Positions 52,101 through 54,497 of a DNA stretch of 64,000 nt are shown in pieces. The stretch's first letter is position 1. Each line of letters starts with the position of its first letter. The DNA lies in NCBI GenBank assembly GCA_016194975.1, contig JACQAM010000007.1, positions 255,947 through 319,946 of the forward strand, in the 5' to 3' direction. The position numbers were made by a program, and so were the translations under genes. Origin of the DNA: Bacteroidota bacterium. GTDB lineage: Bacteria; Bacteroidota; Bacteroidia; Palsa-965. The notes beneath the pieces are model-generated. The model was not told the DNA's origin. It searched no databases and saw only the letters and a program-made list of their open reading frames with translations.

Positions 52101-54497
52101 ATGAACGAACAACTTATTTATCTGGTTCCCGCATTGGGAATTCTCGGACTCATTTTCATGATCCTCAAATCGGCGTGGGTGAGTAAACAGGATGCGGGAA
52201 ACGATCGCATGAAAGAAATTGCAGGATATGTTTCAGAAGGAGCGATGGCATTCCTGAAAGCTGAATATCGCATTCTCGCAATTTATGTCGTACTCGCCGG
52301 CAGCGCACTCGGTTGGTTGAGCCAAGAGGTAACTACTTCTCACATTCTTATCGTCGCTGCATTTGTTTGCGGATGTATTTTTTCTGCACTCGCCGGATTT
52401 TTCGGAATGCGAATCGCTACAAAAGCAAACGTTCGCACAACGCAGGCGGCGAGAACTTCTCTTGCAAAAGCACTGAGAGTTTCTTTCACCGGCGGAACAG
52501 TGATGGGACTCGGTGTTGCCGGACTCGCAGTTCTCGGACTAAGTATGCTCTTCATTATTTTTTTCCAGTTTTTCATGCAGAGTTCACTTGCGAATGGCGG
52601 ATATGAAAAAATGACGCAGGTACTTGAAGTGCTCGCAGGATTTTCTGTGGGTGCAGAATCGATCGCGCTTTTCGCTCGTGTGGGCGGTGGAATTTATACC
52701 AAAGCCGCAGATGTTGGAGCCGATCTCGTTGGAAAAGTAGAGGCAGGAATTCCGGAAGATGATCCGCGTAATCCCGCAACCATTGCAGATAACGTTGGTG
52801 ATAATGTGGGTGACGTTGCAGGAATGGGCGCCGATCTTTTCGGATCGTACGTCGCAACAGTTCTCGCGTCGATGGTGCTGGGCAATTATGTGATTCGCGA
52901 TATGGTTGCAGCGAATGGAAATTATGATGTGATCCCGTTCAAAGGACTCGGCCCCATTTTTCTTCCACTCATGATCTCTGCTGCAGGATTATTCGCTTCC
53001 ATCATCTCCAGTTATTTTGTGAAGGTTGCCGACAATGCAAAAACAGATACACGTACCGTACAACGGGCACTCAATATCGGAAACTGGTCTTCGATTCTTC
53101 TCTCGCTCGTAGCCGCTTATTTTCTCATTCAGCAATGTTTGCCTGCAACAATGAACATCAGTGTTTTCAACGCGGGTGAATTCGGAAAAGCAACTACAAC
53201 AAGTATGCATATTTTCTATGCGGTGATGATCGGAATGTTTGTAGGTGGTGCAATTTCATTTATCACCGAATATTTTACCGGCCTCGGCGGGCGTCCTGTA
53301 AGAGGCATCGTCGAAAAATCTGCGACAGGTGCAGCAACAAATATTATCGCCGGGCTCGGAACAGGAATGTTATCTACTGCACTTCCTGTAATTCTTTTCG
53401 CAGGTGCGATCTGGGGCGCGTATTCACTCGCAGGATTTTACGGAGTAGGAATTGCAGCGTGCGCGATGATGGCGAACACCGCAATGCAATTGGCGATCGA
53501 TGCATTCGGTCCCATTGCAGACAACGCCGGCGGAATTGCAGAGATGAGTGAACTTCCTGCAGAGGTTCGAGAGAAAACAGACGTACTCGATTCAGTTGGA
53601 AATACAACTGCTGCTATCGGGAAAGGATTTGCAATTGCATCCGCAGCGCTTACTGCACTCGCACTTTTCGCTGCTTACGTAACATTCACCGGCATCAACG
53701 GAATAAATATTTTCGATGCAAAAGTTCTCGCTGCGTTATTTCTCGGCGGAATGATCCCGGTTGTTTTCTCCGCGCTCGCTATGAATTCGGTTGGTAAAGC
53801 AGCAATGGATATGGTGAATGAAGTACGCCGGCAGTTCCGCGAAATACCCGGCATCATGGAAGGAAAAGGAAAACCTGAATATGCAAAGTGTGTTGCTATT
53901 TCCACGAAAGCTGCATTGCGCCAGATGTTATTGCCGGGCGTGATCACGATCGTAACTCCAATCATTGTTGGATTGGTGATGGGCGCAGAAGCGCTCGGTT
54001 CTTATATGGCAGGCGTAACCGTGAGCGGTGTACTCTGGGCAATTTTCCAGAACAATGCCGGTGGTGCGTGGGACAATGCAAAAAAATCTTTTGAAAAAGG
54101 TGCGGAGATAGAAGTGAACGGCAAGAAAGAAATTTTTTATAAAAAATCTGATCCGCATAAAGCGGCTGTCGTTGGTGATACGGTTGGTGATCCTTTCAAA
54201 GATACTTCCGGCCCGTCGATGAATATTCTCATCAAGCTTTCCTGTCTCGTTGGACTCATGCTTGCACCACTTCTCGCCGGACACAATGCTACCGCAATGA
54301 ACAACATGTGCAAAGGAAATTCCTGCTGCACCCAGATGATGAATATGAAATGCGATCTGAATAAATGCATGCACATGACGCAGCAACAATGCGCGCAGTA
54401 TTGCGACTCGATGAAATGTACGCCCGAAGAAAAAGAAATGTGTTTGAAACATGCAATGGGTGGAAGCTGCTACGATTCGACAAAGTGCAATAAGTAA
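52101..54497 (+). CDS. hppA: membrane-bound (K+-stimulated) H+/Na+-translocating pyrophosphatase with an unusual Cys/Met-rich C-terminal extension
   Basis: Multi-transmembrane protein with the M-PPase conserved segments (…DNVGDNVGD…, …[22 protein letters not shown]…). Length 798 aa. Confidence 0.9.
   Translation: [798 protein letters not shown]

Follow-up and report, generated by a model that had tools for sequence, protein, structure and literature searches.

A conserved cysteine-rich extension, predicted to be periplasmic, on a membrane pyrophosphatase of Bacteroidota

Membrane pyrophosphatases (M-PPases) are, to our knowledge, treated as single-domain, 16-helix pumps without extramembrane regulatory parts, and we know of almost nothing on their regulation in bacteria. 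Their established topology, known from the structures of 2012, places both the N-terminus and the C-terminus of the 16 helices outside; helix 16 belongs to the inner ring and lines the channel through which the ion exits. Here we analyze an M-PPase gene from a Bacteroidota bacterium, located in a stretch of 64,000 nucleotides of contig JACQAM010000007.1 (assembly GCA_016194975.1, positions 255,947 to 319,946, forward strand; hereafter the window). The pump belongs to a known subfamily; new is an undescribed and conserved domain at its C-terminus, which on topological grounds should be periplasmic.

The enzyme body invites comparison with the unusual K+-dependent proton-pumping pyrophosphatase (H+-PPase) of Flavobacterium johnsoniae (Luoto et al. 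2011, as summarised in PMC6882861 and PMC10897367), to which a pattern with a semi-conserved gate Glu at position 5.43 is assigned. The window protein shares with this type a full PF03030 domain, 16 helices, the Ala of K+ dependence, the lack of Glu at positions 6.53 and 6.57 and the Glu in helix 5 (motif GAES). It differs in its C-terminal domain, of which neither PMC6882861 nor PMC10897367 makes mention. The sole C-terminal M-PPase add-on that we found in the literature is the OmpA-like domain of Paucibacter sp. KCTC 42545 and other Betaproteobacteria, the role of which is "to be elucidated" (PeerJ 2024 review, PMC11210485). In both cases a soluble domain of periplasmic type follows helix 16; the OmpA-like domain, however, is about 110 aa long, beta-rich and recognisable by hidden Markov model (HMM), and sits on a K+-independent enzyme in another phylum. 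No OmpA-like domain was detected by HMM after helix 16 of the window protein (no Pfam match).

For the tail itself the likenesses are to metal-binding proteins. The Gal4-type Zn2Cys6 binuclear cluster is built from the pattern C-x2-C-x6-C, used twice. The window protein likewise has six Cys arranged as tandem three-Cys half-sites (here C-x4-C-x7-C, twice), an arrangement that would suit a small polynuclear thiolate cluster. It departs from both Gal4 and the small metallothionein SmtA (described in PMC7558416) in spacing, location and fold, there is no HMM match, and the likeness is one of pattern logic only. Bacterial metallothioneins (SmtA/BmtA) gave no Pfam, NCBIfam or PDB match to the tail and resemble it in composition alone. 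Copper-storage proteins of the Csp1 type (PMC7558416, PMC12510493) are also extracytoplasmic, helical and very rich in Cys, with Met and His near the entry, and they show that many Cys can persist in reduced form in the periplasm when holding Cu(I) (PMC7558416). Csp1 is, however, a soluble four-helix bundle of about 120 residues, lined with Cys and exported by the twin-arginine (Tat) pathway, whereas the domain described here comprises 31 residues in three short predicted helices and is tethered to the membrane; Csp/DUF326 (PF03860) is not among the Pfam matches of the tail, nor was a fold match found. The C-terminal tail of the plant P1B-ATPase HMA4 provides a further parallel: it is a Cys/His-rich transporter tail with di-Cys motifs that binds Zn with nanomolar affinity (PMC6255694), and the compositional likeness extends to the CC doublets. 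There is no homology, and the HMA4 tail is a cytosolic part of a metal pump, where it regulates or feeds the transport of that metal; the window tail would be periplasmic and belongs to a proton pump, which moves no transition metals. The CHCH (twin Cx9C or Cx3C) hairpin was considered and rejected; the tail has only one Cx3C and no Cx9C pair.

A preliminary description of the window, made from the sequence, read the gene as a canonical M-PPase with a Cys/Met/His-rich C-terminal extension, and the body is indeed that of a complete enzyme. The PF03030 (H_PPase) profile matches aa 14-720 over profile positions 1-644 of 645 (E 6.8e-260; 864.6 bits against a cut-off of 29.7), and the best NCBIfam model is the Na+-translocating equivalog NF001955 (1181.1 bits, above its cut-off of 1059). 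The H+-PPase of Vigna radiata (VrPPase, 766 aa; 4A01/6AFT) aligns with residues 39-730, up to Vigna residue 760, and the alignment to the Thermotoga enzyme (TmPPase, 4AV3) reaches residue 721; the pyrophosphate-binding motifs of M-PPases are visible in these end-to-end alignments. A hydropathy scan gave 16 peaks, the number of helices expected of an M-PPase, the last at aa 709-727. Some 68 residues (nt ~54290-54494) extend beyond the ends of the solved plant and Thermotoga proteins.

Counted from the end of helix 16, the tail comprises 73 residues (aa 726-798; nt 54276-54494). Eleven are Cys (15.1%), compared with six in the 725-residue body (0.83%; binomial P 2.8e-11), and ten are Met (13.7% against 4.4% in the body; P 0.0014); there are also three His and eight Lys. 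The extent and residue counts given in the preliminary description are thus accurate. The features of the gene, together with those of related elements discussed below, are collected in Table 1.

Table 1. Coordinates of the M-PPase gene, its parts and related features (positions are those of the window unless a contig is named).
Feature	Position	Strand	Basis or remark
Complete M-PPase gene	52101..54497	+	798 codons plus stop; open reading frame list, PF03030, NF001955, structure alignments
Codon for Glu186, gate Glu 5.43, helix 5 (GAESIALF)	52656..52658	+	Sequence
Hydrolytic-centre motif, cytoplasmic, before helix 16	54174..54215	+	Sequence; alignment to VrPPase
Transmembrane helix 16 (aa 709-727)	54225..54281	+	Hydropathy 2.14; final hydrophobic segment
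Tail linker (aa 726-750), Met-rich, predicted disordered	54276..54350	+	AlphaFold2
CC doublet Cys742-Cys743	54324-54329	+	Within the linker, which also holds Cys737
Cys6 module 1 (aa 751-781), predicted three-helix mini-domain	54351..54443	+	Tail alignment A1, AlphaFold2
C-terminal remainder (aa 782-798), 2 Cys	54444..54494	+	Tail comparison; AlphaFold2 pLDDT ~50
Intrinsic terminator hairpin plus U-run	54663..54698	+	~165 nt 3' of stop codon
Type IX secretion cargo genes (Por_Secre_tail)	44371-46968, 47130-50003, 60262-63313, 1821-5111, 35873-36721		
Free-standing Cys6 copy P0160	L001 6001-6576		Two-transmembrane hairpin anchor
Free-standing Cys6 copy P0174	L002 2244-2858, L003 2034-2648		Two-transmembrane hairpin anchor
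Free-standing Cys6 copy P0179			Two-transmembrane hairpin anchor

A tail of this kind could be an artefact, in which a frameshift, a missed stop or a misassembly joined a small downstream open reading frame (ORF) to the M-PPase, and in a few database entries (P0187, P0191, P0214, P0168, P0172) the tail does stand alone as a short ORF or is joined to unrelated N-termini. The likelihood of this is negligible. A contig of the Logan assembly (SRR12113409) matches the window at 100% identity over 5217 nt and yields the same product of 798 aa; the frame is continuous, with no alternative ORF, the other two frames over the tail being stop-filled or unrelated; a terminator lies downstream of the stop codon; and the fusion recurs in 79 of the 80 best related genomes and in some 119 of the 120 closest homologues. 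In relatives, too, the tail is part of the pump and not a separate small gene. Given an identical independent assembly and the same fusion in relatives, a frameshift artefact is for practical purposes ruled out, and the reading frame taken by the preliminary description is free of sequencing error. The tail is a genuine in-frame extension and a selected accessory domain of the M-PPase.

The location of the tail follows from the topology of the enzyme, as the preliminary description had also argued. The hydrolytic centre of M-PPases lies on the cytoplasmic side (PMC5150537); since exactly one helix (in to out) follows this cytoplasmic motif and no later segment is hydrophobic, the tail should emerge in the periplasm, and since helix 16 is an inner-ring helix it should do so beside the ion exit channel, at the helix's outer end. 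We place high confidence in this location, jointly with the structural and distributional statements made below. It receives support from YceI-like domains found at the same fusion point in relatives, and from the OmpA-like domain of the Paucibacter enzyme (PMC11210485). Free-standing copies of the module follow a two-transmembrane hairpin with a Lys/Arg-rich loop, which by our own reading of the positive-inside rule would put these, too, outside the membrane. Two other possibilities were examined and rejected: an additional transmembrane helix in the tail (no hydropathy window exceeds -0.16 after helix 16), and haem attachment of the c-type cytochrome kind (the tail has no CxxCH and no CxxC).

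An alignment of Cys-rich tails (A1) defines the anatomy of the extension in three parts, of which the linker is variable, the CC doublet conserved and the 31-residue module, with its six Cys (the Cys6 module), sharply conserved. The doublet is present in 133 of 134 Cys-rich tails, in the context K-M-E-C-C in most relatives and N-S-C-C in the window protein; C17 of the alignment is conserved at 90% or above. Within the module the Cys are spaced C-x4-C-x7-C-x3-C-x4-C-x7-C, which reads as tandem "CD-x3-C-x7-C" halves, and the consensus is C-D-M-x-K-C-[AM]-x-M-[TS]-K-E-E-C-A-[AK]-[YM]-C-D-S-[ML]-[GK]-C-[ST]-P-E-[EQ]-K-x-M-C. All six Cys are kept in 137 of 155 distinct copies, among which D27, M34, C43, C48 and K53 (tail numbering) are 95-100% conserved. 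The copy in the window retains all six and is slightly divergent, with L28 and Q37-Q38 in place of the usual M and E-E. The median pairwise ratio of nonsynonymous to synonymous change (dN/dS) for the module is 0.17 (1110 pairs with dS <2), against 0.10 for a 31-codon control from the body; these figures are rough, synonymous sites being near saturation. Judged from these codon comparisons, the module is clearly under purifying selection.

Structure prediction with AlphaFold2 (AF2) on alignment A1 gave predicted local distance difference test (pLDDT) scores of 84-89 for tail residues ~25-60, with short helices at 28-32, 36-45 and 50-59. These three helices, again at pLDDT 84-89, came out of an independent run on a longer relative as well. 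In the linker pLDDT is below 50 for most of tail residues 1-22. The tail has no credible family in Pfam or NCBIfam, and the same holds for the tails of longer relatives and for the free-standing proteins. For the window tail there was no Pfam family match at E up to 1; its profile gave no match among PDB sequences at E up to 10, and the predicted fold found no significant fold match. The tail alone found nothing in a word-index search; profile searches did find relatives.

Beyond the module, aa 782-798 match the junction that in relatives leads into a second Cys6 module (compare P0008, ...AHAGGSCCKDSTMCKEH...). The window tail ends at this junction, lacks both the second module and the His-rich end, and is, by alignment, a minimal version of the Cys-rich tail. 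The second module, CMEGC.HGCK[TS]KEEC.K.CG..CA..H (C-x3-C-x3-C-x5-C-x3-C-x3-C), occurs in 65 of 263 sequences (e.g. P0002-P0008, L004-L017). A few relatives have a third (C-x3-C-x3-C-x6-C-x3-C-x3-C-x3-C), and the second and third modules both show i, i+4 stripes of Cys reminiscent of copper-storage helices; for the second module this is a further likeness to Csp1. A remnant of the second module 3' of the window's stop codon was sought and rejected, the downstream sequence being AT-rich and non-coding.

The 120 closest homologues (75-100% identity; 723-964 aa) come from metagenome-assembled genomes (MAGs) of Bacteroidia and Flavobacteriales. After helix 16 they continue for a median of 92 residues (minimum 4, maximum 244), and only one has 10 or fewer; an extension is therefore the rule in this clade, and the window tail is among the shortest of the Cys-rich versions. 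The statement in the preliminary description that homologues end within about 30 residues of the last helix thus applies to the solved and characterised enzymes and fails for the clade. The homologue with essentially no tail (P0112; 723 aa, 81% identical) implies that the tail is dispensable for the basic enzyme and its catalysis.

A profile search of GTDB contigs, one genome per species, found the module in 289 species genomes. In 79 of the best 80 of these it lies within the M-PPase ORF; the 80th, truncated by the end of its contig, still starts inside the M-PPase. Carriers include the cultured Flavobacterium silvisoli, F. aquariorum, F. aquicola DSM 100880, F. adhaerens and F. aestuarii, as well as many lake MAGs. 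An HMM search of 1.84 billion cluster representatives gave 64 matches, of which 31 visibly contain M-PPase helix 16; most of the remainder begin within the tail and represent fragments of genes on short contigs. A membrane anchor of their own is present in four of the 64: a two-transmembrane hairpin in P0160, P0174 and P0179, and one transmembrane segment with a degenerate module in P0184. Two of these four were confirmed as separate genes on contigs. Two further representatives join the tail to a fragment of a major facilitator superfamily transporter (P0168) and to an asparagine-synthase-like N-terminus (P0172); these are probably chimeric assemblies or frameshifts rather than real architectures. 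The P0174 gene stands immediately 3' of a gene for a thiol-activated cytolysin (PF01289) in two metagenome contigs, and one free-standing copy adjoins unknown genes and, on the opposite strand, an efflux adaptor of the resistance-nodulation-division type; these neighborhoods are uninformative on function.

By the sequence of helix 16 the module is found in at least three M-PPase lineages (LSCLVGL, LMSIVSL and LTCLIGL). We are highly confident, again jointly with the statements on structure and location, that the tail is specific to the F. johnsoniae-type (Glu 5.43) H+-PPases of Bacteroidota. It is not the only addition made at this site: in other close relatives the position is taken by a YceI-like domain, a Thr-rich beta module, some other Cys-rich sequence or a short tail, and on this comparison of sequences the outer C-terminus is a hot spot for putative periplasmic add-ons in the Glu-5.43 clade. 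A YceI-like domain (PF04264) follows helix 16 in P0020, P0028, P0046-P0049, P0059, P0060 and P0089, and occurs along with module 1 in P0055 and P0081; the bodies of these homologues are 78-87% identical, and the domain sometimes stands behind the Cys6 module. In the window protein Pfam identifies PF03030 only, with no PF04264 after helix 16. We found no mention of an M-PPase-YceI fusion in the literature, and searches of the open literature yielded no account of Bacteroidota M-PPases with Cys-rich or YceI-type tails; the preliminary description was right that the Cys-rich fusion is not a described feature of the family, the reported add-on being the OmpA-like one (PMC11210485).

Several further modules were seen at this site. 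A Thr-rich and probably beta-structured module, "...VEV..LPDG.ARVTTTT...EVR.LT.EEK", recurs in relatives such as P0051, P0063 and P0066 and has no Pfam match; at the Flavobacterium loci L036, L045, L052, L061, L063 and L078 it takes the form "...VRVEITNTNGKaKATVTTTvnG...FEGTEAEVKAKVDALK" and follows the Cys6 module. Homologues P0108-P0120, with the helix 16 sequence "LSSLVGLTIAPLI", form a further M-PPase lineage, whose Cys-rich tails lack module 1 (e.g. "...CCVKPGATAQYTGVCPETGKACTWDDAKKLCVDVDGKTCSG...") and include repeats of the form "C.E.C.K.CKEKG[IV][DE]CG.GK.CP". In several lineages many tails have the ending "DCCKK". Tails rich in Cys but lacking module 1 may represent different periplasmic Cys-rich domains at the same site.

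The ion specificity of the pump can be read from its gate residues. In the GNTTAA(x)GKG motif, which lies at aa 500, the position diagnostic of K+ dependence is Ala and not Lys, and we take Ala at this A/K 12.46 position to be the signature of K+ dependence. Helix 6 (aa 243-253) has no Glu at 6.53 or 6.57, position 6.53 being Gly (GADLFGSY); this pattern is common to all 191 relatives in which the motif was found, from 199 examined, and GAES in helix 5 to all 189 in which that motif was found. Gate Glu 6.53 is listed for Na+ and Na+/H+ pumps (PMC6882861), and the window protein does not have it, despite a score above the cut-off of NF001955. The enzyme is, judged by these signatures, a K+-dependent H+-PPase of the F. 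johnsoniae type, followed by the C-terminal tail. Because Glu 6.53 is absent and the Glu 5.43 signature present, the product name "sodium-translocating" used in public records and by NCBIfam is probably wrong as to ion specificity, and the residues shared by the relatives make a systematic mis-annotation across them likely.

What, then, might the tail do? The preliminary description likened it to a metal-binding or disulfide-rich module; no known family of either type matches. Most likely, though we hold this tentatively, the Cys6 module and its flanks bind soft or borderline metal ions while tethered to the membrane. A disordered Met/Cys-rich linker, and then the three-helix mini-domain, should hang from helix 16 into the periplasm. 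There the two "CD-x3-C-x7-C" halves, with three Cys each, would together enclose a small polynuclear thiolate cluster. Candidate ligands are Cys thiolates and Met thioethers, joined in relatives by the His-rich ends; the metal would be Cu(I) in the first place and Zn(II) or Cd(II) next, and the module might serve as a buffer, a donor or a sensor of periplasmic metal at the surface of the inner membrane.

This reading is favored because of composition, the CC doublets, the Met positions, odd Cys totals, single Cys losses and the Csp1 and HMA4 precedents. The 134 Cys-rich tails are rich in K (13%), C (12%), E (11%), M (7.9%) and H (4.6%) and poor in L (1.2%), I (1.2%), V (2.6%) and F (0.7%), a composition that is metallothionein-like; hydrophobic positions 28, 32, 34, 42, 46 and 55 of the module have Met in place of Leu, Ile or Val; and 25 of the 134 tails have His-rich ends (runs such as HNHDHAHDHNHEHGHDHNHSH). 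The total number of Cys is even in 80 tails and odd in 54. Odd totals in 40% of tails are awkward for obligate disulfide pairs, and the pattern of loss within the module – 15 single against three double losses, with C31 replaced by Met in six copies – is not what such pairs would lead one to expect. Several observations nevertheless weigh against metal binding. Neither Pfam, NCBIfam and PDB sequences nor the fold search revealed similarity to any known metal-binding family, and no metal-homeostasis genes lie near the M-PPase gene. The window encodes aconitase, isocitrate dehydrogenase and an O2-dependent fatty-acid hydroxylase; the organism thus looks aerobic, and unprotected periplasmic thiols should therefore oxidise. 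AF2 folds the module confidently without metal, and the conserved D27, T35 and S/T49-P-E-E can be read as helix N-caps, such that fold alone would explain them. In five copies C31 is replaced by Val, which cannot ligate metal; even Cys totals are in mild excess; and the window tail has only three His, without the His-rich end and second Cys module of its relatives.

Some of these same observations lead to the main rival, a serious one that we nonetheless regard as doubtful: a metal-free structural or regulatory cap, in which three disulfides would hold the tiny three-helix domain together in an oxidising periplasm. Such a cap would cover or adjoin the exit channel or the interface of the dimer, and might stabilise the dimer, shield the channel mouth or act on pumping as a thiol-disulfide redox switch. 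A periplasmic location in an apparently aerobic bacterium fits it, as do an even number of near-invariant Cys in a domain too small for a hydrophobic core, the confident metal-free fold with its conserved helix-capping residues, and the mild excess of even totals; the joint loss of C26 and C31, seen twice, would be consistent with pairing between them, and attachment to inner-ring helix 16 puts the domain beside the exit channel. On the other hand, unpaired losses outnumber paired ones, Cys-to-Met swaps occur and odd totals are frequent; the metallothionein-like flanks, with their CC doublets, Met for Leu and His-rich ends, would be superfluous to a purely structural domain; no fold match to known disulfide-rich helical domains was found, and the spacing differs from the Cx9C/Cx3C of CHCH proteins. 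The tail-less P0112 still looks functional, which argues that a cap is not needed. Capping and metal binding are, moreover, not mutually exclusive. It is also conceivable, if unlikely, that the tail is a passenger without any coupling to the pump, the M-PPase serving as an abundant inner-membrane anchor for a domain of independent function or for a weakly selected appendage of low complexity. The variety of things accepted by the C-terminus in this clade (Cys modules, YceI-like domains, Thr-rich beta modules, short unrelated tails) is in keeping with this, and so are the occurrence of the module on simple hairpin anchors (P0160, P0174, P0179) and the hypervariable length and sequence of the linker and distal parts. 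The module is, however, almost exclusive to M-PPases, with all of the best 80 of 289 being fusions and at most about four of 64 representatives clearly free-standing, and purifying selection across at least three helix-16 lineages makes a weakly selected appendage unlikely; a passenger of independent function overlaps with tethered metal binding.

If the association with the pump is itself functional, then the Cys6 module might be a new extracytoplasmic sensor or effector coupled to the pump at the proton exit mouth. We consider this improbable in either of two versions: one in which the module gates or tunes pyrophosphate-driven H+ pumping according to the metal or redox state of the periplasm, and one in which locally extruded protons release bound Cu or Zn to periplasmic acceptors. 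That the module is found almost only on M-PPases speaks in favor of coupling; the diversity of additions at this site and the copies on hairpin anchors suggest that the pump is no more than an anchor.

The surroundings of the gene contain nothing related to metals or redox; its neighbors are housekeeping genes and genes for cargo of the type IX secretion system (T9SS). The T9SS cargo includes two large SprB-repeat proteins encoded just upstream of the M-PPase and an RCC1-repeat protein. These genes confirm a Bacteroidota chromosome and have no apparent link to the tail. Downstream of the M-PPase, an ORF of 335 aa (55700-56707) has a weak MamF_MmsF match in the annotation of the Logan contig and no Pfam match at E 1e-3 or better. 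The hairpin that follows the stop codon has a folding energy of -22.5 kcal/mol (z -6.3; none of 200 shuffles as stable, by RNA folding) and marks the end of the transcription unit; it was missed by a consensus terminator scan and seen by direct folding. Rfam gave no RNA family match across the whole window, the 580-nt intergenic region upstream of the M-PPase gene (51522-52100) included.

The finding bears on annotation and on biology. The Cys6 mini-domain defines a new small domain family, without relatives in Pfam, NCBIfam or PDB, that can be used in annotation, and "sodium-translocating" labels are flagged on proteins that nevertheless bear proton-pump signatures. A whole branch of M-PPases, the Glu-5.43 H+-PPases of Bacteroidota, including those of cultured and genetically tractable Flavobacterium, routinely carries add-ons predicted to be periplasmic. 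The mini-domain offers a testable handle on a role for the outer face of the M-PPase, and on how freshwater Bacteroidota may deal with soft-metal or redox stress at the inner membrane. Were the module coupled to the pump, it would link pyrophosphate energetics to periplasmic metal or redox homeostasis, a link unknown for any M-PPase.

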